The notes beneath the pieces are model-generated. The model ran no database searches, was not told the DNA's origin, and was given only the letters and a program-made list of their open reading frames with translations. The translations under genes were made by a program, and so were the position numbers. Below, one piece after another: positions 301-47,169 of a stretch of DNA of 47,208 nt. Source of the stretch: a virus (lineage: Duplodnaviria; Heunggongvirae; Uroviricota; Caudoviricetes); IMG/VR virus record IMGVR_UViG_2721755498_000001; one strand, 5' to 3'. Position 1 is the first letter of the stretch. Each line of letters opens with the position of its first letter.

Positions 301-408
301 TTGCGATCGCATGTAGTAGCAACTGGGCTTGACTGAATGTCTGCCGCCATTTTGCCGCCACTACTAAAGAAAAAAGGGCTACGCTTTCACGTAACCCCTT
401 GATTTATT

Positions 409-441
409 TGGTGGAGCTGGCGGGAGTTGAACCCGAGTCCG
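409..441. repeat. attL: direct repeat of the ssrA 3' end (prophage boundary)
   Basis: 409-441 tggtggagctggcgggagttgaacccgAgtccg matches 46807-46839 at the ssrA 3' end with one mismatch; the first 27 bp are identical. Confidence 0.85.
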
Positions 442-513: not shown

Positions 514-1413
514 TTATGTCTGGATGTGGTCGTCAACACATCCTCTTTTAAATACAGGCGCTTTTACCTTAGTTGGATCATCTGTTTTAAAGATTTTCAA
601 TCGTTCACTGAAGAACATTACCTCAGATCCTTTGTACCGATCTTGAGCACTGTAGTTTATTCCATATACTAATGAGGATGTCTTATACATAGCTTGGATC
701 TCAGGAGTGTTATCGTAAGAAACAATCCAAGGCGTTTTAATATTATTCTGTACGACTTTTGCAACCCTAACATGATCATCATGATCATAATGGTTGATAT
801 ATAAGCCTTTACCTTTTATGTAATAAGGTGGATCCAAATAGGTTAATGAGTTTTGTGGCAATTGAATAACTATTTTTTTTATGAAATCAATTGCATCCAT
901 GTTATATAAATCTATTCTGTGACGATTTTCTGATATTCTATGGATTCGAGAAATCAAATCACTCTTATTATAGCGAGCGTCAAGCTTCCATTTCCCTTCT
1001 TGATTTTTACCGCCAATTACACCACCTTTTAATATTCCAGAACGATTTGTTCTATTGAGAAAAAAGGTTGAGAAACCAATTGTTAAAAGATCATGGTCTT
1101 TAGGATTATTAATTATATCTTTCTGCCTAAACCATTCATCCATTGTAACTTCTGTTCTTTCAACTAAAGAACATAATTGATCTGCATGATTTAATACACT
1201 GTGCCAAAAAGCATAAACAGAAATATTAATATCATTAAGGATGATTTTTTCAGCTGCATTTAGATGTAACAGTTTCAATGCTAAACCAGCACCCCCAGCA
1301 TATGGTTCGGCATAATGTATAGGCGAAAGATTATTTTCTTCAATAATCCGAAGCATGAAATTTGCAAGCTTGCCTTTACCGCCAGGATAGCGAAGTGGGG
1401 TGTTAAAACGCAT
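514..1413 (-). CDS. Dam-family (alpha-class, D12-like) DNA N6-adenine methyltransferase
   Basis: Motifs YPGGK, EPYAGGAG, LNRTNRSG and DPPYY align with E. coli Dam WAGGK / EPFVGAGS / LNRYGYNG / DPPY; RBS AGAGGT before the ATG; visibly AT-rich region. Confidence 0.85.
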   Translation of the reverse strand: MRFNTPLRYPGGKGKLANFMLRIIEENNLSPIHYAEPYAGGAGLALKLLHLNAAEKIILNDINISVYAFWHSVLNHADQLCSLVERTEVTMDEWFRQKDIINNPKDHDLLTIGFSTFFLNRTNRSGILKGGVIGGKNQEGKWKLDARYNKSDLISRIHRISENRHRIDLYNMDAIDFIKKIVIQLPQNSLTYLDPPYYIKGKGLYINHYDHDDHVRVAKVVQNNIKTPWIVSYDNTPEIQAMYKTSSLVYGINYSAQDRYKGSEVMFFSERLKIFKTDDPTKVKAPVFKRGCVDDHIQT

Positions 1414-1492
1414 ATGATACCTCTAAATGTCAGATCTAAAGTATATCAAAAAAAGGGCTTTATGGCCATCACATAAAACCCTTTTTAATCAA

Positions 1493-3226
1493 TTAGTTAT
1501 TTGACAGATATGATGAGATGGTAGCAGAATCGACACCATGTCCACTTATCATAATAACTTTAAGACTCTTTATTAGTTCATTCTTGAAGCTATCCGATTG
1601 CACAGGATTTTTCTCGACCCAATATCGATATGGGTTATCTTTAACTCGTCCTTTGACTTGGTCCTGAAATTGAGTCGTATGTGCAAAATCTTTAAACAGT
1701 TTTCTCACTCTCCCGCCATGATTTTTGTTAACTTTTTTATAATTATCTATAAGGATTTTTAAATCAATCGGAGCGTTACCAATCTTTAGCGTTGTAATTA
1801 TGTCTTTAGCTGTTTTCATAAAAACAGATTTTGTAAATTTATTTTTATTTTCCCAATATGCATCATCAGGTGGTAAATTATATAAAAACTCAAAAATCAT
1901 TTGATCTGGAGGTAAGGTGCTTGGAAGCAAACATAAGTTTTTTTCTTTTTTGGCTTTTTTTGCATTAGCACTGTTGTCGTGAACAACATCACCGTCTAAG
2001 ACGATCAAGCTTTTAGCTGTAAATTCTGGTATTTTTCTTGCCATTAAGTCAAGCATGGCAGAGCAGCTAATATTTATATTCCCTAATGGATTTAATATTT
2101 TATTTATTTTTCGATCTGTTATCAATTGTTTGAAAAAGTCGAAACCTTCTTTGTCTTCAAAATATACATTTGCTTTTGGAAGACAAATGTCATCATTAAT
2201 TTTTACAGTTTCAACATGTAAATCAGCGTGGATATCTGTCCATGAAAGATTATTCTTTGTTTTAATATCTCCATATGTGTCTGTAAGATATATTGTTTTA
2301 AAGCTATCACTATCTTGTTTTGAACGATTATAGATATCCTCTATTATTAATGGAGAGTGCGAGGTCATGATTATTTGCAGATCGTATTGTTTTGCTGCTT
2401 TAGTTAGAATATTAATTAACTCTAACTGTGCAGCAGGGAAAAGACCTGCATCGGCTTCATCAATTAACAATATTCCGCCATGATAATCAGAATAAGTTTC
2501 CTTCAATCTTTTAAATGAAAAAATTGCTTGGATTAATTGTCCAACATTATCTTCACCAACAGATACTGATTGGTGATCATAATTGTCACCATGGACAACC
2601 ATTGAATCGATAGTACCTTTTGTTGCTGTTACTGAGCTTCCATTGTTTTTTAGTAAGAGTTGGTTACTCATCATTCTGATTTCATCAGAATTTTCATTGA
2701 TGTACTGAACATCCCGTGTTGAGTAATTAGTCCTTAATGTAATAGGAAGAAGTCGTGCTAAGCTTAAAAAAATAACAGGATGAGTAACGTTTCTACTTTG
2801 GTTTTTTTCCGGTATTGAATCATTTCCCCTGACTACAGGCCTTGATTTATCTCTGTCACTGTAGCTGTATAAACCTAATGTTAGTTTTTCAAGATGTTTG
2901 TTCGATGCACCATCATAGACACTAATTTTGACGTCCATTGAACCAGGAACATCAAATTGTTCTGAAAGCCTAAAATGTTCGCTGAAAGCTGACTTGAAGC
3001 TGCCATTTGTTAATGTTTTATATTGTGTTAAATCAGTCTCAGGTTTTTTGGTAAAGTCCTTTGTAAAGCTAAATATTTGGGCGATAATGCCAAGAATTGT
3101 GGATTTAGATGTGCCATTTTTACCACAAATAACAGTTAGGCGAGAACCAAACTCGATGTTTATATTTTTCAGTCCGCGAAACTTCACAACATTTATATTT
3201 TTTAGTTTGGTAATTTGATTTGCCAT
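1493..3226 (-). CDS. ABC-type ATPase (OLD/GajA-like) with putative C-terminal TOPRIM nuclease domain
   Basis: Walker A GKNGTSKST, Walker B ILLIDEADAGL, H-loop TSHSP; C-terminal E...DxD pattern (YFEDKEG ... IVLDGD) typical of TOPRIM. Start taken at the internal ATG (MANQITK) with upstream GGAG; the ORF is open to 3277. AT-rich; co-oriented with int. Confidence 0.7.
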   Translation of the reverse strand: MANQITKLKNINVVKFRGLKNINIEFGSRLTVICGKNGTSKSTILGIIAQIFSFTKDFTKKPETDLTQYKTLTNGSFKSAFSEHFRLSEQFDVPGSMDVKISVYDGASNKHLEKLTLGLYSYSDRDKSRPVVRGNDSIPEKNQSRNVTHPVIFLSLARLLPITLRTNYSTRDVQYINENSDEIRMMSNQLLLKNNGSSVTATKGTIDSMVVHGDNYDHQSVSVGEDNVGQLIQAIFSFKRLKETYSDYHGGILLIDEADAGLFPAAQLELINILTKAAKQYDLQIIMTSHSPLIIEDIYNRSKQDSDSFKTIYLTDTYGDIKTKNNLSWTDIHADLHVETVKINDDICLPKANVYFEDKEGFDFFKQLITDRKINKILNPLGNINISCSAMLDLMARKIPEFTAKSLIVLDGDVVHDNSANAKKAKKEKNLCLLPSTLPPDQMIFEFLYNLPPDDAYWENKNKFTKSVFMKTAKDIITTLKIGNAPIDLKILIDNYKKVNKNHGGRVRKLFKDFAHTTQFQDQVKGRVKDNPYRYWVEKNPVQSDSFKNELIKSLKVIMISGHGVDSATISSYLSNN

Positions 3227-3250
3227 GTTTGTATCTTGCTCCGTAAAATG

Positions 3251-3267
3251 GCCACAAATTGTGGCCA
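3251..3267. promoter_or_regulatory. Perfect 17-bp palindrome between int stop and ATPase start (terminator or operator candidate)
   Basis: ggccacaaattgtggcc at 3251-3267; followed by ATTTTA on the minus strand. Confidence 0.3.
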
Positions 3268-3284
3268 ATAGTTTCATGCTTGGA

Positions 3285-4451
3285 TTATATTGTTATCTTC
3301 TTCAAGCTTGTTTGTCCATCATATTCCTTCAGATATGAGCCATAGTGCCTGAAAAGCATCTCCGGTCCTTTATGCCCCATTTGAGCTGCAAGCCAAAACA
3401 GGTTTGCTCCCCGGCTGATATGGCGGGTGGCGAATGTATGCCTAGTTTGATATGGATTTCTGTAACGAATACCTGCTTTTCGCAATGTTGGCACCCATGC
3501 TTTTTTTCTGATTGCATCAGCACTTGCCCATGGCTTATTGGTCTTTGGATCTTCAAAGACAGTAGCATCCTTCATGAATGTAAATGGCTTCTGGTTTATC
3601 AACGCCAACATTGCTTCTTCAGTCAGTTCAACTTTACGGGTACCGGCTTTTGTCTTTGTTCCTTTGATAACTCCGACAACACTTGCGCTCTGAACATGGG
3701 CTGTTTTTCCAACAAAGTCGATATCATGCCATCGTAGGGCACATAATTCAGAACTACGCAGGCCTGTATGTATGGCGAACCGGAACAGATTTTCCCATTG
3801 TTTGTTTCCGGCTGCTGCTAGTAATGCATCAACTTCTGCTGGTGATAGCGGATCAACCACATAGCTGCTTTCTGCTTCTGACTTATCACTTTGGTAGCGC
3901 GAAGCTGTTACTAACGATACGGGGTTAATTTGAAGTACCCCATCGGTCACGGCTTCATCAAGTGCTGACCGTAGGAAAGATAACTGGTTGCGAATGGTTT
4001 TTAAGGTTGTTTTCTGGCTTTGAATCCACGCTTTCAGGGTTGCTGGTGTTAATTCACTTGCAGGGCAAATGTGAAGTGAGGCTAACGCACTACGGCATTT
4101 TTTATAGCCACCAATCGTAGAGGGTGAAAGTTTTCTTGTTTCGCAGATTTCAAGATATTCGTCCAGGTACATCTTTACCGTTTTGCCTGCAGCAGCATTA
4201 CCAAAAATTTTCAAACGAGCAGAACGGGGAAAATATTCTGCATAAATGAATGTTCCCCTTTCGATCTTATTATGGATTTCGCCGAGTGTACGCTCGGCGT
4301 ATTTAATGTTCTTTGGTGTTACTTCCAGATTGGAAAGCGGCTCACGACATCTAACTCCTTTGTAGGTGAAAGTTATATTGATCGTTTCTCCCTGGCGGTG
4401 TTTCCTGATTGTTACGCCGCGCGGTAGTTTGAGCAGTTTTGTCTGGCCCAT
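3285..4451 (-). CDS. int: Phage integrase, tyrosine recombinase
   Basis: 388 aa; C-terminal catalytic region with R...H..R...Y context (HTFATRHISRGANLFWLAAQMGHKGPEMLFRHYGSY); next to xis and the att end. Confidence 0.9.
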   Translation of the reverse strand: MGQTKLLKLPRGVTIRKHRQGETINITFTYKGVRCREPLSNLEVTPKNIKYAERTLGEIHNKIERGTFIYAEYFPRSARLKIFGNAAAGKTVKMYLDEYLEICETRKLSPSTIGGYKKCRSALASLHICPASELTPATLKAWIQSQKTTLKTIRNQLSFLRSALDEAVTDGVLQINPVSLVTASRYQSDKSEAESSYVVDPLSPAEVDALLAAAGNKQWENLFRFAIHTGLRSSELCALRWHDIDFVGKTAHVQSASVVGVIKGTKTKAGTRKVELTEEAMLALINQKPFTFMKDATVFEDPKTNKPWASADAIRKKAWVPTLRKAGIRYRNPYQTRHTFATRHISRGANLFWLAAQMGHKGPEMLFRHYGSYLKEYDGQTSLKKITI

Positions 4452-8241: not shown

Positions 8242-8934
8242 TTAATTGTGTCGCTTAAGGGTTTGTGACTGGCTGATTAAGACCTTTCCAAAGACCATAA
8301 ACCGGTGTTCATTTTCGCTGGTAATTCCCCATTCACGGTAAATCTGGTTATCAGAAATCACCAGTAGTTTGTCAGGTATCATTTGCAGTCGTTTGACATA
8401 AATTTTATCATCAAAACCAAATACATAGATACCATCTCCATCAAACTGATTGATACTGACATCAACGAAGATGAGATCTCCTGGCTCAATGGTTGGACAC
8501 ATACTGTCCCCACGAACGTTGATAACTTTAATGTGATTGGCTGGCCGTCCGCCAAACATCGATACAGCATTATCAGTTCTGTATTCAATGGCATGAATCA
8601 CATCAATGACATCACCGCCCTGGATAAGGCCATTTCCCGCACTGGCACTGACATCCAGCATTTCAATACGGAATACATCCTTCACCTGCGCAACATCCTC
8701 ACTAATACTGTTTTTACATACAGTATTACTTTTGACGTCTGAGGTAAAGAGATCTGCAATATCAACACCTAAGCTCCTGGCAATATTACTCAGGGCTTGT
8801 TCAGTGAATTGTTTCTGCTTACCTGTTTCCAGGCGTGAGATATTCGCCGCATCCACTCCTATTGCTTCAGCGAGATCGGCGATCTTCATGTTCTTCGCCT
8901 GGCGAAGTTGTCTGACTCGGTTTCCTATGTTCAT
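8242..8934 (-). CDS. cI: CI-like prophage repressor (HTH plus S24 LexA-like peptidase domain)
   Basis: N-terminal HTH (MKIADLAEAIGVDAANISRLETG) and C-terminal S24 region (VRGDSMCPTIEPGDLIFVD ... KRL); divergent from cro. Confidence 0.9.
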   Translation of the reverse strand: MNIGNRVRQLRQAKNMKIADLAEAIGVDAANISRLETGKQKQFTEQALSNIARSLGVDIADLFTSDVKSNTVCKNSISEDVAQVKDVFRIEMLDVSASAGNGLIQGGDVIDVIHAIEYRTDNAVSMFGGRPANHIKVINVRGDSMCPTIEPGDLIFVDVSINQFDGDGIYVFGFDDKIYVKRLQMIPDKLLVISDNQIYREWGITSENEHRFMVFGKVLISQSQTLKRHN

Positions 8935-11137: not shown

Positions 11138-11628
11138 TCATGAGTCTTTTGAATGAAGTTCAGAAATTCATTGAAGCCCATCCGGGGTGTACTTCCGGAG
11201 ACATTGCGGATGCTTTTGCAGGTTACTCACGGCAGCGCGTTCTGCAGTCAGCAAGCAAGTTACGTCAGAGTGGGCGTGTGGCTCACCGTTGTGAAGGAGA
11301 TACACGCAGACATTTCCCACGCCTGACTGAGAGAGCGCAGGAGCCGGAACCACAACCAGTTCGTGAAACCAGACCTGTGCGCAATTTCTATGTCGGCACT
11401 AACGATCCCCGGGTGATTTTGTGCCTGACCCGCCAGGCGGAAGAACTGGAGTCCAGGGGCTTATACCGTCGTGCTGCAACGGTGTGGATGGCGGCATTCC
11501 GTGAAAGCCACTCCCAGCCAGAACGAAACAATTTTCTGGCGCGTCGTGAGCGGTGCTTACGGAAAAGCAGCAAGCGCGCTGCATCGGGTGAAGAGTGGTA
11601 TCTGTCAGGGAATTACGTGGGGGCTTAA
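11134..11628 (+). CDS. Hypothetical regulatory protein, possibly PerC-like
   Basis: 164 aa; LYRRAATVWMAAFRES segment recalled as PerC-like; stop overlaps the next start (TAATG). Confidence 0.35.
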   Translation: MIMSLLNEVQKFIEAHPGCTSGDIADAFAGYSRQRVLQSASKLRQSGRVAHRCEGDTRRHFPRLTERAQEPEPQPVRETRPVRNFYVGTNDPRVILCLTRQAEELESRGLYRRAATVWMAAFRESHSQPERNNFLARRERCLRKSSKRAASGEEWYLSGNYVGA

Positions 11629-12053
11629 TGAGTAATAAATATTGCCAGGCGCTGGTGGAGCTGCGGAACAAACCAGCCCATGAACTGAAGGAAGTGGGCG
11701 ATCAGTGGCGCACGCCGGATAACATTTTCTGGGGAATTAACACCCTGTTTGGCCCGTTTGTTCTGGATCTGTTCACTGATGGTGATAACGCCAAATGTGC
11801 CGCTTATTACACTGCGGAAGACAACGCGCTGGCGCATGACTGGTCTGAACGTCTTCCCGCCAACCAATCAGGAGGTGGCAACCATGCTGGGATACCGTTC
11901 GGTGAATGCAGCGGTGGAGCATCTTCGCGCACTGGAGAAAAAAGGCGTCATCACGATAAAGCGTGGCGTGGCCCGGGGGATAACGCTTCATACCGCGGTG
12001 AAGGACGACGACAGCGAGGCGGTCGGGATTATCCGCGCACTGCTTGCCGGTGA
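11628..12053 (+). pseudogene. Truncated phage-type Dam N6-adenine methyltransferase (N-terminal about 80 aa only, yfdM-like)
   Basis: [49 protein letters not shown]...AHDWSERL matches the phage Dam N-terminus; no DPPY/NPPY catalytic motif follows; the rest of the frame is low-complexity. Confidence 0.5.
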
Positions 12054-13315: not shown

Positions 13316-14311
13316 GTGACCGTGAGAGCACTACTGACCCCTGAAATTGCCCCGCGTATGGGGATCGTATTGTTCAGGCCCGGTTCAGAGCTGATGCCCC
13401 TGTTTATGCAGGGGCGTGTCCTGCTGGAGCCTGAGCCGGAGCATTATTCATCTTTCGCCAGTGGTGCCGTTCCCGCGGCGTCACAACCGCTGGCGGATGA
13501 TCCTGCTGTTCGGGCCGTGTTCCGCAATGAGGCAGTGATCCGTCGTGCTGGTGGCGTGGAATGTCTTGAAAGCTGGTTACTTCGTGAAAAAGGCTGCCAG
13601 TGGCCTCATTCCGACTGGCACAGCGAGAACATGACCACAATGCGACACGCTCCGGGTGCAATCCGTCTGTGCTGGCACTGCGATAACCAGCTGCGCGATC
13701 AGTTCACGGAACGGCTGGAATCAATGGCAACGGATAACTGTGCCCGCTGGGTGTTGTCTGTTGTGCGTCGGGATCTCGGTTTTGATGACAGTCACGTTGT
13801 GACAATGCCGGAACTGTGCTGGTGGCTGATTCGTAATGACCTGGCGGATGCCTTACCGGAAAGTGCAGCCCGTAAGGCACTGAGATTACCGAAGCCTGTT
13901 GTGCCGTCTGTCACCCGGGAAAGTGACCTTGTGCCTTCGGTTCCTGCTACCAGCATCATCCAGGATAAGGCGAAAAAGGTGCTGGCGCTGAAAGTGGATC
14001 CGGAGTCGCCGGAGTCTTTTATGTTACGCCCAAAACGTCGCCGCTGGGTTAATGAAAAGTACACGCGCTGGGTTAAGACACAGCCGTGTGCATGTTGTGG
14101 AAAGCCCGCTGATGATCCCCACCACCTGATAGGTTACGGTCAGGGTGGAATGGGAACAAAAGCGCATGACCTTTTTGTGTTGCCTTTGTGCAGAAAGCAT
14201 CACGACGAGCTGCATGCGGATACCGTGGCATTTGAAGAAAAGTATGGCTCCCAGTTGGAGCTGATATTTCGTTTTATCGATCGCGCGCTGGCAATTGGCG
14301 TATTGGCGTAA
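13316..14311 (+). CDS. Phage protein with C-terminal Cys/His zinc-binding motif (DUF968-like)
   Basis: 331 aa; C-terminal CACCGKP...HH...CRKHHDELH; position in the nin-like region. Confidence 0.45.
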   Translation: MTVRALLTPEIAPRMGIVLFRPGSELMPLFMQGRVLLEPEPEHYSSFASGAVPAASQPLADDPAVRAVFRNEAVIRRAGGVECLESWLLREKGCQWPHSDWHSENMTTMRHAPGAIRLCWHCDNQLRDQFTERLESMATDNCARWVLSVVRRDLGFDDSHVVTMPELCWWLIRNDLADALPESAARKALRLPKPVVPSVTRESDLVPSVPATSIIQDKAKKVLALKVDPESPESFMLRPKRRRWVNEKYTRWVKTQPCACCGKPADDPHHLIGYGQGGMGTKAHDLFVLPLCRKHHDELHADTVAFEEKYGSQLELIFRFIDRALAIGVLA

Positions 14312-14324
14312 GTGGAGAACGAGC

Positions 14325-15077
14325 ATGAACCTTGAAGCCTTACCAAAATATTACTCCCCAAAATCTCCAAAATTGAGCGATGACGCACCGGCGACAGGCT
14401 CAGGTGGTTTAACGATTACGGATGTGATGGCTGCGCAGGGGATGGTGCAGTCGAAAGCACCGCTTGGGTTTGCCTTATTCCTGGCAAAAGTTGGTGTTCA
14501 GGATCCTCAGTTTGCGATTGAAGGTCTGCTCAATTACGCGATGGCACTGGATAACCCGACATTGAACAAATTGAGTGAAGAAACCCGGTTACAGATCATC
14601 CCTTACCTTGTGAATTTTGCCTTTGCTGATTATTCCAGGTCTGCGGCAAGTAAGGCTCGCTGTGAGCATTGTGCTGGTACTGGATTTCATAACGTATTGC
14701 GCGAAGTGGTGAAACACTCCAGAAGCGGGGAATCTGTTATCAAGGAAGAGTGGGTGAAGGAACTATGTCAGCATTGCCATGGTAAGGGAGAAGTCAGCAC
14801 AGCGTGCAGAGGGTGTAAGGGAAAAGGTATTGTCCTGGATGAAAAAAGGACCCGACTTCATGGCACGCCTGTTTATAAGATTTGTGGGCGTTGCAATGGA
14901 AACCGGTTTAGCCGTTTACCAACCACACTGGCGCGGCATCATGTCCAGAAGCTGGTACCAGACCTGACGGATTATCAGTGGTACAAAGGATATGCAGATG
15001 TCATTGATAAACTGGTTACAAAGTGCTGGCAGGAAGAAGCATATGCAGAGATACAATTGAGAAAGGTAACAAGATAA
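14325..15077 (+). CDS. Q: Late-gene antiterminator Q-like protein
   Basis: Cys-rich zinc motif (CEHCAGTG...CQHCHGKG...CRGCKGKG...CGRCNG); RBS GGAG before the ATG at 14325; followed by a strong terminator. Confidence 0.65.
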   Translation: MNLEALPKYYSPKSPKLSDDAPATGSGGLTITDVMAAQGMVQSKAPLGFALFLAKVGVQDPQFAIEGLLNYAMALDNPTLNKLSEETRLQIIPYLVNFAFADYSRSAASKARCEHCAGTGFHNVLREVVKHSRSGESVIKEEWVKELCQHCHGKGEVSTACRGCKGKGIVLDEKRTRLHGTPVYKICGRCNGNRFSRLPTTLARHHVQKLVPDLTDYQWYKGYADVIDKLVTKCWQEEAYAEIQLRKVTR

Positions 15078-15183
15078 ATGGTTTTCGCCGAAGATGACGA
15101 CATGATGCTTGCATTTTTCAAAAAATATGGATAAGATTTTCCCAACGATGGGCTTTGTATGTCTACCGTTGATAAGATTTAAG

Positions 15184-15210
15184 AACCCGCCGCTGAGCGG
15201 GTTTTTTTGT
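15184..15210 (+). terminator. Rho-independent terminator (tR'-like) downstream of Q
   Basis: aacccgccgctgagcgggtttttttgt: GC stem plus T7 run. Confidence 0.65.
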
Positions 15211-15357: not shown

Positions 15358-15783
15358 ATGAGTGTAATGAAAAAGGTATTAATAGCAGCGATAGGTTTTT
15401 GTTTGATTGGTTGTGCAGGTATGAAATTACCTGAGTATTCGCAAGTTAAAGCAAGTCCGTATTATACAGATTGCCGTGCGTTTGCCATGGATGTTTATAA
15501 AAATGATGGATACAGCAAAATTGCGAAAACTACTATCCTTAGCATGGATGATGTGAAGGCTAGATATATTGTGACAGGGTGTGTAGTTGCTATGGGAAAA
15601 AACACTGTAGAGGAAGTCAAAGCTGATCTCTCTGCTAAAGGGAGTTCTTTTGGGCTTATCAGTGGAGCTTGCTCTAGTGCGGCATGTCGGGTTGATGTAG
15701 AGCAGCAAATGAACGCTTATGTACTTGGTAGTTATTATGCTGCAAATAAAAAATTCCCGGATAACATGAAAGCAGAGTTTTAA
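15358..15783 (+). CDS. Lipoprotein of unknown function (moron)
   Basis: Signal peptide with lipobox LIGC (MKKVLIAAIGFCLIGCAG); AT-rich; bracketed by near-identical terminators. Confidence 0.7.
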   Translation: MSVMKKVLIAAIGFCLIGCAGMKLPEYSQVKASPYYTDCRAFAMDVYKNDGYSKIAKTTILSMDDVKARYIVTGCVVAMGKNTVEEVKADLSAKGSSFGLISGACSSAACRVDVEQQMNAYVLGSYYAANKKFPDNMKAEF

Positions 15784-15860: not shown

Positions 15861-15887
15861 AACCCGCCACTGAGCGGGTTTTTTGTA
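15861..15887 (+). terminator. Rho-independent terminator, near-duplicate of the one at 15184
   Basis: aacccgccactgagcgggttttttgta; one substitution in the stem and one shorter T-run relative to 15184-15210. Confidence 0.65.
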
Positions 15888-15982: not shown

Positions 15983-16210
15983 ATGTTAACCAGAAGGGAA
16001 AAAGACATGCTAAAACAGCAAGATATGACAGAAACCGCCGCCGCAGTCCTTCATTTCTTACCTGCTGACAAGTGGGTAACGCCACGCATGATGACGAGAA
16101 CTACCGGAGTAAGCGAAGCCCGGTGCCAGTTAATACTGACTCAGTTAGTTCTGGCGGGTCTGGCGAAGGATAACGGCGGGTACGGGAATAAATTCAGACG
16201 CTGCCAGTAA
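15983..16210 (+). CDS. Small hypothetical protein
   Basis: 75-aa ORF; no motif recognised. Confidence 0.3.
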   Translation: MLTRREKDMLKQQDMTETAAAVLHFLPADKWVTPRMMTRTTGVSEARCQLILTQLVLAGLAKDNGGYGNKFRRCQ

Positions 16211-16360
16211 TGGCGGTTTCCTGCTGTGAAAATGGGCGGCTGGTGGGTGTTGGTAGCACCTGCCAGCCATTCGCTCATGCTTACTGGTCACAAGCGAACC
16301 ACGGCCCACTGCTTTAGCGCAAAAGCAGAGTGAGCCTACCAGAGTTACGCTTACTGATCC

Positions 16361-17413
16361 ATGAAAAATACTGTAAAAATAAACAGTGTTGATTTAATCA
16401 ACGCTGATTGCCTGCATTTTATTCAGTCCCTGCCTGATGATTCCATTGACCTGATTGTTACCGATCCGCCGTACTTCAAGGTGAAACCCAACGGCTGGGA
16501 CAATCAGTGGAAAGGGGACGAAGATTACCTTAAGTGGCTGGACCACTGTCTGGCCCAGTTCTGGCGGGTGTTAAAACCTGCCGGAAGCCTTTACCTGTTC
16601 TGTGGGCATCGCCTGGCATCTGATATTGAGATCATGATGCGTGAACGTTTCAACGTGCTTAACCATATCATCTGGGCGAAGCCGTCCGGACGTTGGAATG
16701 GGTGTAATAAAGAAAGTCTGCGCGCATATTTTCCTGCCACAGAGCGCGTTCTGTTTGCTGAACATTACCAGGGGCCATATCGCGGCAAAAGTGACGGCTA
16801 TGCGGCAAAAGAAAGGGAACTCAAACAGCACATAATGGCACCGCTGATATCGTATTTCAGGGATGCTCGTGCCGAACTGGGTATAACGGCAAAACAAATT
16901 GCCGAAGCCACAGGTAAGAAAAATATGGTTTCCCACTGGTTTGGTGCCAGTCAGTGGCAGTTGCCGAATGAGGCTGACTATCGGAAGTTACAGGCACTGT
17001 TTTCCCGTATAGCGGCAGAGAAGTTTCAGGAACAACAACTGGAACAACCACACCACCAGCTGGTGGCATCTTATGATTCACTGAATCGCAAATATTCTGA
17101 ATTGCTGGATGAGTTTAAATCTCTCCGGCGCTATTTCTCCGTATCAGTCTCCGTGCCTTATACCGATGTCTGGATGCATAAACCCGTTCAGTTCTACCCG
17201 GGTAAACATCCGTGTGAGAAACCGGCGGATATGCTCAGGCAAATAATCAATGCCAGTAGTCGACCTGGTGATCTGGTTGCTGATTTTTTTATGGGATCCG
17301 GTTCCACAATAAAAGCAGCAATGGCGCTGGGGCGTCGGGCCTTAGGTGTTGAGCTTGAGTCAGAGCGGTTTAACCAGACAGTGAAAGAGATAAACGAGCT
17401 GGTGGGGAAATAA
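16361..17413 (+). CDS. Orphan beta-class DNA methyltransferase (N6-adenine or N4-cytosine)
   Basis: Motif [11 protein letters not shown] near the N-terminus and motif I FFMGSGST near the C-terminus (beta-class order); no adjacent nuclease gene. Confidence 0.8.
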
Positions 17414-17480
17414 TCTGGTGGCCACGTCAGGTGGCCTTTTTATTTCCATTACACAGCACCCGCATCTGCGAGGTGGGGTT

Positions 17481-17696
17481 ATGAAATCCATGGATAAGTT
17501 AACAACGGGTGTCGCCTATGGCACCTCAGCAGGTAGTGCCGGGTACTGGTTTTTACAGTTGCTCGATAAAGTCACGCCCTCACAGTGGGCGGCAATAGGT
17601 GTGCTGGGTAGTCTGGTATTTGGCCTGCTGACGTACCTGACAAACCTTTATTTCAAGATTAAAGAAGATAAGCGCAAGGCTGCGAGAGGTGGATAA
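17481..17696 (+). CDS. S: Pinholin, phage 21 S21-like
   Basis: Dual-start MKSMDK motif; [13 protein letters not shown]...[13 protein letters not shown] transmembrane segments; 71 aa. Confidence 0.8.
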
Positions 17697-18193
17697 TGCC
17701 TCCATCATTACGAAAAGCTGTTGCTGCTGCTATTGGTGGCGGAGCAATTGCTATAGCATCAGTGTTAATCACTGGCCCAAGTGGTGACGATGGCCTGGAA
17801 GGTGTCAGCTACATACCATACAAAGATATCGTTGGCGTATGGACTGTATGTCACGGACACACCGGAAAAGACATCATGCTCGGTAAAACGTATACCGAAG
17901 CAGAATGCAAAGCCCTCCTGAATAAAGACCTTGCCACGGTTGCCAGACAAATTAACCCGTACATCAAAGTCGATATACCGGAAACAACGCGCGGCGCTCT
18001 TTACTCGTTCGTCTACAACGTGGGTGCTGGCAATTTCAGAACATCGACGCTTCTTCGCAAAATAAACCAGGGCGATATCAAAGGCGCATGTGACCAGCTA
18101 CGTCGCTGGATATACGCTGGCGGTAAGCAATGGAAAGGCCTGATGACTCGTCGTGAGATTGAGCGTGAAGTCTGTTTGTGGGGGCAGCAATGA
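17696..18193 (+). CDS. R: SAR endolysin (lysozyme with N-terminal signal-anchor-release domain), R21-like
   Basis: Gly/Ala-rich N-terminal SAR segment ([18 protein letters not shown]) followed by a lysozyme-like region; directly after the holin. Confidence 0.8.
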
Positions 18194-18633
18194 GCAGAGT
18201 AACCGCGATTATCTCCGCTCTGATTATCTGCATCATCGTCTGCCTGTTATGGGCTGTTAATCATTACCGTGATAACGCCATCGCCTACAAAGAGCAGCGC
18301 GACAAAGCCGCATCCACTATCGCTGATATGCAGAAGCGTCAACGTGATGTAGCAGAACTCGACGCCAGATACACAAAGGAGCTTGCTGATGCTAACGCGA
18401 CTATCGAAAGTCTTCGTGCTGATGTTTCTGCTGGGCGTAAGTGGCTGCGCGTCAAAGCTGTCTGTCCAGACATGCATAAAATCACCGCCGCCTCCGGCGT
18501 GGATGATGGCACCAGCCCCAGACTTACTGACACCGCTCAACGGGATTATTTCACCCTTAGAAAGCGGATTGAAACCAGTGATAAAATGATCCGAGGCTTG
18601 CAGCAATACATTCGCACGCAGTGTGTAAGATGA
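18190..18633 (+). CDS. Rz: Rz-like inner-membrane spanin
   Basis: N-terminal transmembrane segment, coiled-coil-like remainder; overlaps the endolysin end. Confidence 0.7.
18383..18589 (+). CDS. Rz1: Rz1-like outer-membrane lipoprotein spanin, embedded in Rz in the +1 frame
   Basis: Signal peptide with lipobox VSGC ([12 protein letters not shown]) and a proline-rich segment; fully nested in Rz. Confidence 0.6.
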
Positions 18634-19013: not shown

Positions 19014-19334
19014 TTAGATGCATCGACATTTGATGATGCTTGTCAGACCTGTCATTTTCTTTGCTTCATTTTCAACATTGATGAAGTTGGTTGAGCATAT
19101 TTTTTGATAATCTCCAGTTGTGAATCCTGTTTTATCGATCTTGCGTTTCAAGGGATTAATCGTTTTGCAAGATGCTCTATGGATTCTGGTAAAGCGTTCG
19201 TCAGATTTATTACCTTTACCTCTGGTTCGCTTCAATGCATTGACAACATATCCGTCTGGATTATCGCCAAGCCAATTACGATAGTCTGATTCACTCTCAG
19301 TCTGAAGGTCACTTCTGAATACCTTTATGGACAT
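19014..19334 (-). CDS. Small basic hypothetical protein (antisense moron between lysis and packaging genes)
   Basis: RBS AGGAG 7 nt before the internal ATG (MSIKVFRSDL); AT-rich; opposite strand to the late operon. Confidence 0.4.
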   Translation of the reverse strand: MSIKVFRSDLQTESESDYRNWLGDNPDGYVVNALKRTRGKGNKSDERFTRIHRASCKTINPLKRKIDKTGFTTGDYQKICSTNFINVENEAKKMTGLTSIIKCRCI

Positions 19335-19480
19335 GAAGATACTCCTGTGCATTTATGGTACGAAGAAATAGCAAAAGTATTTTTACCGTAAATTGCGAAT
19401 CTACAAAAGCAAAACAATGCGTAATATCAGAGTGAATATTCTGCCTTTAATGTGGGTCCTTCTGATGACCTGAGCTCTCA

Positions 19481-42062: not shown

Positions 42063-42646
42063 TGGTATTCAGAATGAGTGAACAACCACGGACCATAACA
42101 ATTTATAATCTGCTGGCCGGAACTAATGAATTTATTGGTGAAGGTGATGCATATATTCCGCCTCATACAGGTCTGCCAGCAAACAGTACCGATATTGCAC
42201 CGCCAGATATTCCGGCAGGCTTCGTGGCTGTTTTCAACAGTGATGAGGCATCGTGGCATCTCGTTGAAGATCATCGGGGTAAAACGGTTTATGACGTAGC
42301 GTCAGGGGACGCGTTATTTATTTCTGAACTCGGTCCGTTACCGGAAAATGTTACCTGGTTATCGCCGGAAGGGGAGTTTCAGAAGTGGAACGGCACAGCC
42401 TGGGTGAAAGATGCAGAAGCAGAAAAACTGTTCCGGATCCGGGAGGCGGAAGAAACAAAAAACAGCCTGATGCAGGTAGCCAGTGAGCATATTGCGCCAC
42501 TTCAGGATGCTGTAGATCTGGAAATCGCAACGGAGGAAGAAACCTCATTGCTGGAAGCCTGGAAAAAGTATCGGGTGTTGCTGAACCGTGTTGATACATC
42601 AACTGCACCGGATATTGAGTGGCCAGAAGAACCAGACACCGTGTAA
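42062..42646 (+). CDS. tfa: Tail fibre assembly protein
   Basis: 194 aa immediately after stf; N-terminal region resembles Tfa. Confidence 0.75.
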
Positions 42647-42715: not shown

Positions 42716-43534
<819 letters not shown>

Positions 43535-43895
43535 TCATTGCAAGGGCTCACAACCAGTAGTGTTGAGAAAACCATCGGAGAAATGAGGCTAAGCCTTTGA
43601 ATTTACATAGTACAAAAAAGATACTTTTCCTCATAATGTGAGCTAATTTTATGTTTCGTTTGATGATTGGACCGGTCTCGAAAACCGTAGACACATAGTA
43701 TGCGTTAATTTATGAACAAACTACTTGTCTGCTGTTTTTCTGTCATTAGTCGTATATAGAATGATTCTCTATGCCTAACAAAGCATCACCAGTGCTAGAT
43801 TACGTTGTAGTCACTGTTTAAATATCCAGATAAAACATTTCCTTCTGGGTTGAATGAGTGATAAAGTTTCACCCATTAGACCCCTTGGAGGAATT

Positions 43896-45329
43896 ATGTC
43901 TGAATTTGAAGTGTTGGCACAGCATCTGCTGAAGGAAGCCGAGGCGGAAGAAAAGCTGCGACAGGAAAATGATAAAAAGCTTATCGAGAAAGTGCTGGAA
44001 ATCTATGATCAGAAGTATGTGGCTGAATTACTGAGAAAAGTCGGAAAAAATGAGTGGAGCCGTGAAACCATTAACCGCTGGATTAATGGCAAGTGTTTAC
44101 CAAAATCGTTGACTTCAGTAGAAGAGTCTCTTCTGCGTAAGATGCTACCAGAACCACCTGCAAACCATCCGGAATATGCTTTCCGCTTCATTGACTTATT
44201 TGCTGGAATTGGAGGGATACGGAAAGGTTTTGAGGCCATTGGAGGCCAGTGTGTTTTTACCAGTGAATGGAATAAAGATGCTGTGCGTACATACAAGGCC
44301 AACTGGTTTAACGATGAACAGGTGCATAAATTCAATCTCGATATTCGGGAAGTCACGCTGAGTGATAAAACCGATGTATTGGAAACGGATGCTTATGCAT
44401 ATATTGATGAGCATGTGCCGGATCATGATGTGCTTCTTGCGGGGTTCCCGTGCCAGCCATTTAGCCTTGCTGGTGTTAGTAAGAAAAACTCACTTGGTCG
44501 TGCGCATGGTTTTGAATGTGAAGCACAAGGAACACTTTTTTTTGACGTGGCACGTATTATACGAGCAAAAAAACCGGCAATTTTTGTGCTGGAAAATGTC
44601 AAAAATCTGAAGAGCCATGATAAGGGTAAAACTTTCAAAGTCATTATGGAGACCCTTGACGAGCTGGGCTACGAAGTTGCCGATGCTGCAGAAATGGGAA
44701 AAAACGATCCAAAGATTATCGATGGGAAGCATTTTTTGCCTCAGCATCGTGAACGCATTGTTCTGGTCGGATTTAGACGAGATCTGAATATTCACAAGGG
44801 GTTTACCTTGCGTGATATCAGTCGTTTTTATCCGGAACACCGCCCATCATTTGGTGAATTGCTGGAGCCTGTAGTCGACAGTAAATATATACTTACGCCA
44901 AAACTATGGGAGTACCTTTATAACTACGCCAAAAAGCATGCAGCCAAGGGGAATGGTTTTGGCTTTGGGTTGGTCAATCCTGAGAATAAGGAAAGCATTG
45001 CACGCACACTTTCTGCCAGATATCACAAAGACGGATCAGAAATTCTTATTGATCGTGGTTGGGATATGGCAACGGGAGAGGCTGACTTTATGAATGAGAG
45101 TAATCAGGCTCGTCGACCACGCAGGCTGACTCCCCGAGAGTGCGCACGCCTTATGGGATTTGAAAAACCTGGAGGGAAACCATTCCGTATTCCGGTTTCA
45201 GATACTCAGTCATATCGGCAGTTCGGTAACTCAGTTGTGGTGCCAGTATTTGAAGCTGTTGCCAGACTTCTGGAACCCTATATCCTCAAAGCTGTTTCTG
45301 CTGATGCTGGTAAGACTGGGCAGCCTTGA
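43896..45329 (+). CDS. DNA cytosine-5 methyltransferase, Dcm / M.EcoRII-like
   Basis: Motif [16 protein letters not shown], motif [10 protein letters not shown], motif VI ENVKNL; N-terminal region close to E. coli Dcm; 477 aa from the RBS-supported ATG, the length recalled for M.EcoRII. Confidence 0.9.
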
Positions 45330-45363
45330 GAACATCTCCCGGCCTTTTAAGCCGGGAGTCAGC

Positions 45364-46578
45364 CTATGATAGTTCAGCGTAAAGCTCTATCAGCTCAGTA
45401 ATGAATGCTCCGAGCGTTATTAATTCTTCTCTAACTGCTTCTGGGTATTTTTTATGTAAAGTTGATGGTACAACGAGTCTGACACCCGCATCTTTCATTT
45501 CTCGGTATTGTGCTGAAGAAACACCTTCTTGCAGTGTAAATAAATGTACCTGATGGATTTTATCTGCTTCATTCAGTATCTGACGCCAGCGATCTTTGCA
45601 GGTGGTCTTTACTGCCAGCATACGTAAGTTTTCTACAGGAAATTCAACGTTATGATATGCCTCTGCTGAAGGAAACAGGAAATCTGGTTTTTTATTACCT
45701 TCAGTAACTGCCTGAGTGGAGAAATGCCGTAGTCCGTGCTCGATAAAAAGCTTCTCTAGGTGAAGTTCAAGTGATTTGCCTGCCCTTGATTTACGTCGAT
45801 TACTGACAGAGTTGGCTAATGCAATAAACTCATCTACAGAATCGAATCCTTTCTTAATAATATCAAGAACATGTAATTCCTCGACGAGTAGAAAAATATC
45901 ATACTCGACACGCCGACGGTCAATCAGTTGCTCATCTGGATCCTTGGAGTTTTTAGCATAATGGCCAGCAGCATATTGAATAATTTCGTTTCCAGAAGGA
46001 AAACGCTTCTTCCAGTCTTCAGGAATAACATATTTATGATTTACTGGAGTTTGCTGAAGAGACAATCCGCCCAAAATTTGTCCGGCAGGGCCGGAAATTA
46101 GGGTTCCAGGTATGATTTCGCCAATAGCAGACTCGATGATATCCTCTTCATCGGGATTGACGCAGACCCATATATCTACCTCGGAACAGTCAGTGTTCTG
46201 TTCGTTTAACCTGAAAGCAAGAATTGTGAGGGCTCCTGTATTTTCAGGGTTCTGTAATGGACTTCCTCTCCCCCAGCGCGTAATTCTTTTTTCGTTTCGG
46301 GTCTTACCAAAATAACGGTTGTTGTAATAAATTGCGCGTGCTTGGGTATCAGGGCAATCATGGGATGATACATGCGCAGTAAGGAAGACTGAAGGGTTCA
46401 GTTCGCGAGTATGATTGATAGATGGAAAAAGCTTTTCAACGATATTTGAGGGGATATAAAGTCCGACCTGATGGCCACCTGTTGCGCCTGTGTCGTTTGC
46501 AGAAAGGCGTTTGATGTAGATAAAGTAATTCCCGCTTGCGATATCAAGCAGCCAGTTATGAAAAACCGACATATACAT
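45364..46578 (-). CDS. Type IIE restriction endonuclease, EcoRII-like
   Basis: 404 aa, the length recalled for R.EcoRII; convergent with a Dcm-like methyltransferase; identity from memory, not search-confirmed. Confidence 0.65.
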   Translation of the reverse strand: MYMSVFHNWLLDIASGNYFIYIKRLSANDTGATGGHQVGLYIPSNIVEKLFPSINHTRELNPSVFLTAHVSSHDCPDTQARAIYYNNRYFGKTRNEKRITRWGRGSPLQNPENTGALTILAFRLNEQNTDCSEVDIWVCVNPDEEDIIESAIGEIIPGTLISGPAGQILGGLSLQQTPVNHKYVIPEDWKKRFPSGNEIIQYAAGHYAKNSKDPDEQLIDRRRVEYDIFLLVEELHVLDIIKKGFDSVDEFIALANSVSNRRKSRAGKSLELHLEKLFIEHGLRHFSTQAVTEGNKKPDFLFPSAEAYHNVEFPVENLRMLAVKTTCKDRWRQILNEADKIHQVHLFTLQEGVSSAQYREMKDAGVRLVVPSTLHKKYPEAVREELITLGAFITELIELYAELS

Positions 46579-46806: not shown

Positions 46807-46839
46807 TGGTGGAGCTGGCGGGAGTTGAACCCGCGTCCG
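46807..46839. repeat. attR core: ssrA 3' end, duplicated at 409-441
   Basis: Matches 409-441 with one mismatch. Confidence 0.85.
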
Positions 46840-47169
46840 AAATTCCTACATCCTCGGTACTACATGCTTAGTCAGTCTTTACATTCGCTTGCCAGCTGCG
46901 GACGGACACGCCACTAACAAACTAGCCTGATTAAGTTTTAACGCTTCAACCCCAGGCAGGACTTCCACGCGATCTCTTTTGGGTTTGACCTCTCTTGATC
47001 CCCGTCCTAAGAGCGGAGGCTAGGGAGAGAGGGCTCTAAGCAGGTTATTAAGCTGCTAAAGCGTAGTTTTCGTCGTTTGCGACTATTTTTTGCGGCTTTT
47101 TACGAGGCCAACCGCCCCTCGGCATGCACCTTGGGTTTCGCAAATCCCGTCGAATCCAGAATCAGCCCC
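46807..47169 (-). ncRNA. ssrA: tmRNA (SsrA), 363 nt
   Basis: Reverse complement runs from GGGGCTGATTCTGGATTCGACGGG to the tRNA-like 3' end CCAGCTCCACCA; tag-encoding region recognisable. Confidence 0.95.

Follow-up and report, generated by a model that had tools for sequence, protein, structure and literature searches.

What kind of DNA methyltransferase is encoded directly upstream of the lysis genes of this prophage, and what would the phage gain from it? In the stretch of DNA that was analysed, a window of 47,208 nucleotides, the gene is a 350-aa ORF on the plus strand at positions 16361–17413. Previous inspection of the letters, referred to below as the sequence-only reading, had described an orphan beta-class methyltransferase with motif IV before motif I, and this description held when the protein was compared with profiles and with characterized enzymes. 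The protein matched the Pfam family PF01555 (N6_N4_Mtase) with 145.9 bits against a cut-off of 26.7 (E=2.2e-42), over profile positions 1–220 of 221. The sequence DPPY (motif IV) was found at aa 35–38 and FMGSG (motif I, FxGxG) at aa 310–314, that is, with motif IV N-terminal to motif I and the target-recognition domain between them, which is the arrangement of the beta class.

The same order of DPPY, target-recognition domain and FxGxG is present in M.EcoGII (GenBank EGT69837.1), which was described together with M.EcoGI from prophages of E. coli O104:H4 C227-11 (Murray et al. 2018; PMC5778455) and which, like the enzyme studied here, is prophage-borne and has no cognate nuclease. Over the full length (350 aa against 349 aa, with two one-residue gaps), 281 of 349 residues were identical (81%), an approximate value and probably a lower bound, because the reference sequence was machine-read from the PDF of Table S1 of PMC11551740 and shows visible misreadings, such as NHHIWAK in place of the NHIIWAK of natural homologues. 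This full-length identity settles the membership of the enzyme in the M.EcoGII family. With regions delimited according to the M.EcoGII model, the N-terminal catalytic part was 89% identical and the target-recognition domain (aa 160–237) 77% identical and gap-free. The segments aa 97–110 and aa 116–140, which are reported to form the dimer interface (PMC11551740), carry one conservative substitution each in the alignment, and residue 179 is Q, as in M.EcoGII. A tblastn search with M.EcoGII returned phage homologues in a continuous series of 93%, 87%, 80%, 63%, 56% and 50% identity. A single-sequence AlphaFold2 model of the protein had a mean pLDDT of 38, too low for use. Specificity for N4-cytosine was also considered and was judged unlikely, given the DPPY motif and the closeness to a proven adenine enzyme. 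We estimate a probability of about 0.8 that the product of the gene is an M.EcoGII-family N6-adenine methyltransferase, orphan and of the beta class, that is expressed late, has little or no sequence preference and serves anti-restriction. The gene represents a phage enzyme type that is already known and catalogued, rather than a new one. Membership of the M.EcoGII family had gone unremarked in the sequence-only reading.

The surroundings of the gene bear out the earlier statement that it belongs to the late operon and immediately precedes the lysis genes. Upstream, the late antiterminator Q was identified at 14325–15077 (+) by PF03589 (E=1e-53) and by the annotation of phage Ayreon; the program-made ORF begins at 14295, and the Ayreon-type start lies at about 14325. 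Directly after Q, a candidate late promoter pR' (TTGCAT, 17 nt, TAAGAT) was read by eye at 15109–15137 (+); a consensus promoter scan around the methyltransferase gene did not call it, and the sites found by that scan were no commoner than in shuffled sequence. The candidate promoter is followed by a tR'-like intrinsic terminator, AACCCGCCGCTGAGCGGGTTTTTTT, at 15185–15210 (+), in the same place as a terminator annotated in Ayreon and SfV. A low-GC moron encoding a lipoprotein-like protein of 141 aa (15358–15783, +; phrog_4748) is inserted in the late leader and is absent from SfV; it is closed by a second terminator hairpin (15861–15886, +) nearly identical to the first. Next come a 67-aa ORF at 16007–16210 (+), which matched phrog_331 (E=5e-26), and the 5' leader of the methyltransferase gene at 16211–16360 (+). 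This leader is structured (fold z-score −3.1) and conserved in five phages, and contains a 12-bp hairpin at about 16239–16269 that survives three one-sided changes among the phages compared, while a search of the leader against Rfam gave no match.

Downstream of the methyltransferase gene, a terminator-like hairpin with a T-run (17420–17444, +), which the annotations of Ayreon and SfV give as a terminator, separates it from an S21-type pinholin with a dual start (MKSMDK) at 17482–17696 (+; PF04971, E=4e-35). The pinholin is followed by an endolysin at 17696–18193 (+; PF00959, E=2e-45), whose hydrophobic N-terminal segment we read from the translation as a putative SAR signal-anchor, and by the spanin Rz at 18190–18633 (+; PF03245, E=6e-39). 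According to the Pfam and phrog matches, none of the neighbouring ORFs (Q, the moron, the 67-aa ORF, holin, endolysin and Rz) is a nuclease, in agreement with the proposal that the enzyme has no partner nuclease.

To place this arrangement among other phages, gene orders were compared. The order Q, terminator, small ORF, methyltransferase, terminator, holin is identical in Ayreon and SfV, and lysis genes also follow the methyltransferase immediately in Serratia phage OS31, the N15-like phage YDC107_1 and Vibrio phage MAR. In Stx2a phages the gene is upstream of tRNA genes and stx2; the gene studied here differs from the M.EcoGII-type setting in that it directly precedes an S21-type lysis cassette. 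With the Stx2 phages included, the order of methyltransferase and then lysis genes recurs in all of these phages, and the position had rightly been called typical. The homologue of Stx2a phage WGPS2, which is 93% identical to M.EcoGII, lies at the same place, downstream of both Q and a phrog_331-type ORF, the latter being 52% identical to the 67-aa ORF. This ORF accompanies the methyltransferase in lambdoid phages of E. coli and Shigella, and is absent from OS31, YDC107_1 and MAR.

The protein itself is 100% identical to that of Ayreon (ATE85487.1), a phage for which a complete genome has been deposited and E. coli K12 is given as host. A 1.8-kb region containing the gene is 97–99.7% identical at the DNA level in Ayreon, mEp460, cdtI, vB_EcoS-569R4 and SfV, and was covered to at least 80% in 981 of 5426 complete E. 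coli genomes. In the comparison with the WGPS2 homologue, dN/dS was 0.09, and the gene is therefore under purifying selection. The entries for this methyltransferase in Ayreon-type phages, including orf48 of SfV, are annotated merely as 'DNA methylase' or 'unknown'.

On this basis we propose the following course of events. In the lysogen, the methyltransferase would be silent, because its gene is preceded by the proposed late promoter and by at least two intrinsic terminators, a position seen in the sequence and in the comparison with Ayreon. After induction, RNA polymerase modified by Q would pass the terminators and transcribe the methyltransferase gene together with those of the holin, endolysin and spanin. 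The enzyme would then methylate adenines of the replicating phage DNA before packaging, with little or no sequence preference, and the released virions would bring into the next host DNA that is heavily m6A-modified and resistant to many restriction enzymes of types I, II and III. The gene itself, its motifs, family, position and conservation, and the purifying selection acting on it, were established in this analysis. The non-specific activity, the silence in the lysogen and the toxicity upon expression are carried over from published relatives and would apply here by analogy: in vitro, methylation by M.EcoGII reaches as many as 99% of adenines and prevents cleavage by many restriction enzymes, while the enzyme is unexpressed in the lysogen and slows growth upon expression (PMC5778455); ST131 carries a near-identical homologue that is silent at the level of transcription (PMC4659465). 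Late expression of the gene and protection in vivo are what we infer for the phage; our literature search returned no direct demonstration of virion DNA methylation, or of phage protection in vivo, by an M.EcoGII-family enzyme. Heavy m6A could also make the DNA a better target for type IV enzymes that depend on m6A, such as Mrr.

The enzyme falls in a subclade with the methyltransferases of Ayreon, mEp460, cdtI and SfV, distinct from that of M.EcoGII, from which 19% of its residues differ, and our literature search found no assayed enzyme of this subclade. With overall identity at 81% and that of the target-recognition domain at 77%, specificity may have changed. If the 23% of residues that differ in this domain had created a preference for one defined motif, the enzyme would protect against a single restriction system only, and the nearest solved structures are those of site-specific enzymes such as M.RsrI. 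We nevertheless regard such a sequence-specific enzyme as unlikely, as the target-recognition domain shows neither insertions nor deletions relative to M.EcoGII, and the protein is nearer to Anc291 (310 of 348 residues identical; 89%) than to M.EcoGII itself. Anc291 and the deeper ancestor SUPREM are synthetic reconstructions of ancestors of the M.EcoGII clade (PMC11551740). Anc291 methylates both DNA and RNA, its RNA methylation shows no visible sequence motif, and the same lack of a motif in RNA applies to SUPREM; all ancestors tested were active on DNA and RNA (PMC11551740). These observations suggest that the relaxed specificity goes back to the ancestor of the clade.

The activity on RNA also bears on what the enzyme mainly acts upon. 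In vitro, M.EcoGII also accepts RNA and DNA:RNA hybrids as substrates (PMC5778455), the leader of the gene is structured and conserved, and the tight linkage with lysis genes persists across unrelated phages, all of which would suit an enzyme whose main role is regulatory or RNA-directed, such as placing m6A on phage or host RNA or controlling late gene timing or packaging. The activity of M.EcoGII on RNA, however, is about 100-fold below that on DNA (Table S3, PMC11551740), and SUPREM, whose RNA activity is far higher, has E at position 179, where M.EcoGII and the enzyme studied here have Q; changing E179 to Q lowered the RNA activity of an engineered variant (PMC11551740). Moreover, the methyltransferase is an accessory gene, because there are lambdoid phages without it or with only a remnant, the 933W-type Stx2a phages retaining 34 C-terminal residues. 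A mainly regulatory or RNA-directed role is consequently, in our judgement, very improbable. We give even less credence to the idea that the gene is a silent passenger, inactive or decaying in a cryptic prophage. Homologues of M.EcoGI and M.EcoGII gave no methylation signal in lysogens in published work, and the prophage contains another methyltransferase gene that a deletion has reduced to a remnant; against this, the full length of the ORF is preserved and so are its two catalytic motifs, its dN/dS is low, and an identical protein is encoded by Ayreon, a deposited complete phage genome. In the prophage, too, the att sites, integrase, repressor, Q and lysis genes are intact and the set of head and tail ORFs is complete. 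The reading that we retain as probable is that of a functional, late-expressed and non-specific anti-restriction methyltransferase.

To evaluate how this gene relates to the other methyltransferase loci of the window, the limits of the prophage were determined. The prophage measures 46.4 kb and is integrated in ssrA, between exact 27-bp direct repeats at 409–435 (attL, a copy of the ssrA 3' end) and 46807–46833 (attR, inside the ssrA 3' end; the tmRNA occupies 46807–47169 on the minus strand). No 27-bp repeat is expected by chance, and related prophages in other genomes begin at about 404–416. The integrase, a tyrosine recombinase, is encoded at 3285–4451 (−; PF12167 and PF00589). The sequence-only reading had counted four methyltransferase genes or remnants in one prophage, and all four were found where it had placed them; they belong to a single att-bounded prophage, because the repeats at the ssrA 3' end flank them all. 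The possibility that the first and last of them lie outside the prophage was excluded, as the repeats enclose both, no third att copy was present and the related prophages begin at about the same point. The element combines common modules in mosaic fashion; a search for the exact prophage among 5426 complete E. coli genomes gave at best 84% coverage of the first 25 kb.

The gene at 514–1413 (−, 299 aa) had been assigned to the Dam family. A D12-class adenine methyltransferase is indeed encoded there (PF02086, E=4e-19), although on the minus strand and with a score of 55.2 bits against the NCBIfam Dam cut-off of 114.85 (TIGR00571), which makes it a D12-class enzyme and not a Dam equivalog. It matched PD-Lambda-5_B of PADLOC, the methyltransferase component of the PD-lambda-5 defence system, over its full length (E=1e-123) and is co-oriented with a gene for a 594-aa ABC/AAA_15 ATPase (PtuA/AriA/GajA/OLD-like by profile matches) at 1493–3277 (−), located between it and the integrase. 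The label PD-lambda-5 was considered for this pair and rejected, since the methyltransferase matches but its partner is an ATPase instead of the ParB/HEPN protein; PD-Lambda-5_A was missing from the 25 best PADLOC matches of the ATPase. At 11628–12053 (+), described before as a truncated phage Dam, the first 76 codons run out of frame into a LexA-like gene, and only positions 3–60 of the 169 of PF05869 are left. Compared with vB_EcoS-569R4, a deletion of about 480 bp has removed residues from about 77 to 218, including GNPPYS with the catalytic NPPY, and the gene is, by its sequence, dead.

The Dcm-like gene, at 43896–45329 (+; alternative start 43854), likewise proved to be what it had been taken for, an M.EcoRII/Dcm-type C5-cytosine methyltransferase (PF00145 and PF18284, the Dcm N-terminal domain; RefSeq 477 aa), with 927 bits against the NCBIfam PRK10458 cut-off of 710. 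Convergent with it, at 45364–46578 (−), lies a gene for an R.EcoRII-type restriction endonuclease with complete PF09217 and PF09019 domains, which matched PDB 1NA6 (R.EcoRII) over residues 1–403 (E=3e-243). The Dcm-like protein is thus the M subunit of an EcoRII restriction-modification system (type IIE) that is complete and is carried as defence cargo of the prophage. Adjoining this system, at 42716–43489 (−), is a gene for a GIY-YIG type IV restriction endonuclease of the CMoRE/PD-T4-3 type (PADLOC, E=8e-140; PDB 9U75, E=5e-171), CMoRE having been described as a type IV nuclease (PMC12923530). The methyltransferase loci therefore sort into what is likely one late-expressed anti-restriction enzyme, two genes accompanied by defence-type genes and one remnant. 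The notion of a layered set of self-protection functions fits the gene upstream of the lysis cassette but not the others, which are the M subunit of EcoRII, the PD-lambda-5-like gene with its ATPase and the dead Dam. The further idea that four such genes signal pressure from several host restriction systems was not borne out, for the same two genes accompany defence genes and the Dam is dead; a single non-specific enzyme of the M.EcoGII type already accounts for broad protection.

The proposed use of the enzyme follows the same logic as that of Mom of phage Mu and of the promiscuous alpha-class phage adenine methyltransferases, namely broad modification confined to the lytic phase by enzymes that are silent and toxic in lysogens. 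The chemistry of Mom is unrelated, and the alpha-class enzymes (Drozdz et al. 2012), as they are cited in PMC5778455, have the opposite motif order. As a decidedly speculative extension, the phrog_331 ORF, the structured leader of 150 nt with its conserved hairpin and the methyltransferase might together form a timing or dosage control that limits the toxic enzyme to a short window before packaging, perhaps coordinated with the EcoRII, CMoRE and D12-methyltransferase/ATPase cargo as one modification-based toolkit of attack and protection; or the Ayreon/SfV subclade might differ from M.EcoGII in specificity or substrate.

Our results indicate that the proper label for this gene is M.EcoGII-family, probably non-specific, adenine methyltransferase, and not the generic 'DNA methylase'. 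The finding has little importance beyond the right annotation, although the DNA of phage induced from such lysogens may be hypermethylated, which would affect host range, restriction mapping and methylation calls from long reads.

The ORF at 16361-17413 (+ strand) encodes a protein of 350 aa that matched the whole profile of Pfam PF01555 (N6_N4_Mtase; E=2.2e-42, 145.9 bits against a cut-off of 26.7). Its DPPY motif occupies aa 35-38 and FMGSG aa 310-314, placing motif IV N-terminal to motif I and hence the protein in the beta class. The closest solved structures were beta-class adenine methyltransferases (8URK/9C3U, M.RsrI, M1.MboII and CcrM), the aligned portion being the two catalytic-core halves only. 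As no nuclease was found among the adjoining ORFs by Pfam and PHROG matches, the earlier description of the gene as an orphan beta-class methyltransferase was borne out.

Phage Ayreon encodes an identical protein (100%), annotated as "putative DNA methylase", and the 1.8-kb region around the window gene showed 97-99.7% identity in mEp460, cdtI, vB_EcoS-569R4, PhiR40_1 and SfV. At least 80% of this region was covered in 981 of 5426 complete Escherichia coli genomes, where RefSeq names the gene "DNA-methyltransferase". When compared with the M.EcoGII reference sequence from Table S1 of PMC11551740, 281 of 349 residues were identical (81%, with two one-residue gaps), while 310 of 348 (89%) were shared with the reconstructed ancestor Anc291; because the table was machine-read, with visible errors such as NHHIWAK for the NHIIWAK of all natural homologues, both figures are approximate and probably lower bounds. 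In a separate check, tblastn with the same M.EcoGII sequence gave 80.5% identity to PhiR55_1, the methylase region of which is 98.9% identical to the window at the DNA level. Divided according to the published M.EcoGII model, identity was 89% in the N-terminal catalytic part, 72% in the linker, 77% in the target-recognition domain (aa 160-237) and 76% in the C-terminal catalytic part. The two reported dimer-interface segments carry one conservative substitution apiece, and residue 179 is Q, as in M.EcoGII. Against the homologue of the Stx2a phage WGPS2, dN/dS was 0.09 (dS 1.36), indicating strong purifying selection.

M.EcoGII methylates adenine in any sequence context, reaching up to 99% of dA in vitro, and this methylation blocks many restriction enzymes (PMC5778455). 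It was not expressed in the lysogen and slowed growth when expressed; as proposed in the same paper, its activation on prophage excision would serve to overcome host restriction (PMC5778455). All reconstructed ancestors were active on DNA and RNA, and RNA assays of two of them, Anc291 and SUPREM, revealed no sequence motif (PMC11551740). M.EcoGI-like genes were likewise silent during laboratory growth in ST131 (PMC4659465) and O111 STEC. Our literature search found no paper assaying methylases of the Ayreon, mEp460, cdtI and SfV type, nor any report of virion hypermethylation or in vivo protection for a member of the M.EcoGII family. In many Stx2a phages (933W-type, Stx2 phage 86 and others), all that is left of the M.EcoGII-type methylase is a C-terminal stretch of 34 residues (aa 315-348, 82-85% identity), pointing to repeated loss of the gene in that lineage.

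The methylase lies downstream of Q, which ends at 15077. Directly after Q, a candidate pR'-like promoter (TTGCAT, 17 nt, TAAGAT; ~15109-15137) was recognised by visual inspection; a consensus promoter scan did not call it. This candidate is followed by a strong intrinsic terminator (15185-15210) and by a lipoprotein-like moron of low GC content (38%; phrog_4748, 15358-15783), closed by a near-identical terminator (15861-15886). The two flanking hairpins have the sequence AACCCGCC[G/A]CTGAGCGGGTTTTTT, so that the moron looks like an insertion that duplicated tR'. A 67-aa ORF with no assigned function (phrog_331, 16007-16210, + strand) comes next; in lambdoid phages of E. coli and Shigella it is always found 5' of the methylase (52% identity in Stx2a WGPS2), and neither the N15-like relative nor the Serratia and Vibrio ones carry it. 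Between the methylase and the lysis genes there is a terminator-like hairpin (17420-17444), after which come a pinholin of the S21 type with a dual start (MKSMDK), an endolysin with a putative SAR signal-anchor, read from its hydrophobic N-terminus, and Rz. The genes are arranged alike in Ayreon and SfV, whose annotated terminators occupy the corresponding sites, although the moron is missing from SfV. The focal gene is thus part of a Q-dependent late transcription unit, and from this observed layout we infer its late expression. A 112-aa ORF encoded in the reverse direction (19014-19352, - strand), located after the lysis cassette and before the small terminase subunit, matched nothing in Pfam, PHROG or PADLOC.

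The 150-nt leader of the methylase (16211-16360) is structured, folding better than 200 of 200 shuffles (z-score -3.1). It is kept across five phages, although as only two sequence variants, which leaves this conservation with no statistical power; a 12-bp hairpin within it (~16239-16269) is preserved despite three one-sided base changes. An Rfam search of the leader returned no match. In SfV and Stx2a phages, the sequence immediately 3' of the small ORF forms a more distinct terminator-like stem, with a T-run behind it. It is possible that the elements upstream of the methylase are control elements.

Homologues were also found directly upstream of the lysis genes in the lambdoid Serratia phage OS31 (64% identity to the window protein), the N15-like Escherichia phage YDC107_1 (56%) and the VHML-like myovirus Vibrio phage MAR (48%, similar to VHML ORF17), confirming the sequence-only reading that this position is typical. 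The Stx2a phages have a relative with 93% identity to M.EcoGII downstream of Q, ahead of the tRNA genes and stx2. The focal gene therefore belongs to a characterised family, has been catalogued before and occupies the genomic position usual for it.

An exact 27-bp direct repeat, TGGTGGAGCTGGCGGGAGTTGAACCCG, occurs at 409-435 and 46807-46833, with no third copy in the window and none expected by chance. The right copy coincides with the 3' end of ssrA, the tmRNA gene (46807-47169, - strand). In E. coli EC01440 this right arm borders on ssrA and smpB, and related prophages in other genomes start at approximately window positions 404-416. Taken together, these observations indicate that the window contains a lambdoid prophage of 46.4 kb, inserted in ssrA. 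It encodes an integrase (3285-4451, - strand) and a cI-like repressor (8242-8934, - strand); between the latter and Q are genes for CII-like, PerC, RusA, KilA-N and DUF968/HNH proteins and a replication protein with helix-turn-helix domains. The lysis cassette follows Q, and a long run of putative head and tail ORFs ends with the tail fibre and tail-fibre assembly genes. The latter contains a match to the Rfam IS009 RNA family (42405-42603, + strand; 229 bits against a gathering threshold of 117). This exact mosaic was absent from the 5426 complete E. coli genomes, the best coverage of its first 25 kb being 84%. Just outside attL, the 3' end of a reverse-transcriptase gene (1-300, + strand; weak matches to PF00078 and PADLOC RT models) suggests a second mobile or defence island in tandem at ssrA.

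Inside attL, a D12-class methylase (514-1413, - strand; PF02086) scored 55 bits against NCBIfam Dam, below the cut-off of 115, and matched the PD-lambda-5 defence methylase over its full length (PADLOC PD-Lambda-5_B, E=1e-123). According to Vassallo et al., PD-lambda-5 is an RM plus Abi system in a compacted prophage form, for which an mrr-deleted host was needed. We rejected this assignment for the pair, since the ParB/HEPN partner is replaced by a co-oriented ABC/AAA_15 ATPase of 594 aa (phrog_3940, with N-terminal similarity to PtuA, AriA, GajA and OLD). Only 8 bp separate the integrase stop codon (3285) from the start of the ATPase ORF (3277), indicating that integrase, ATPase and methylase form one block (514-4451, - strand), which is co-oriented and of low GC content. 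The block is also present in ST131 strains such as JJ1886, where its methylase is probably M.EcoMIV, reported to be transcriptionally silent (PMC4659465). The methylase and ATPase may constitute an uncharacterised defence module.

At the other end, a Dcm/M.EcoRII-type methylase (43896-45329, + strand; PRK10458, 927 bits) converges with an R.EcoRII-type nuclease (45364-46578, - strand; PDB 1NA6, residues 1-403 of 404, E=3e-243), and the two make up a complete type IIE restriction-modification system. Adjoining them is a GIY-YIG type IV nuclease of the CMoRE/PD-T4-3 type (42716-43489, - strand); CMoRE targets 5hmC and glucosyl-5hmC DNA (PMC12923530). Two defence systems are thus stacked at 42716-46578, between the tail-fibre assembly gene and attR.

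Of the phage Dam gene (11628-12053), only the first 76 codons are left. Compared with vB_EcoS-569R4, a deletion of ~480 bp begins at codon 77 of Dam and reaches into the 5' end of the LexA-like gene that follows; its junction lies at 11847-11855, where the flanking alignments overlap by 9 bp. The deletion removes the GNPPYS catalytic motif as well as the start of the LexA-like gene and shifts the frame, joining the Dam 5' part out of frame to that gene. The Dam gene is dead.

The prophage does carry four methylase genes or remnants as proposed, three intact and one a remnant. Their interpretation as layered self-protection stands only in part, since the roles of the loci differ, and the suggested pressure from several host restriction systems is unsupported: one M.EcoGII-type enzyme already covers broadly, and the remainder is for the most part defence cargo at both ends of the prophage. 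The Dcm-like methylase would protect the lysogen from its own EcoRII nuclease and the D12 methylase is paired with a defence-type ATPase, while the focal enzyme, by analogy with M.EcoGII, is probably a late-expressed adenine methylase without sequence specificity, and would serve to cloak the progeny DNA.
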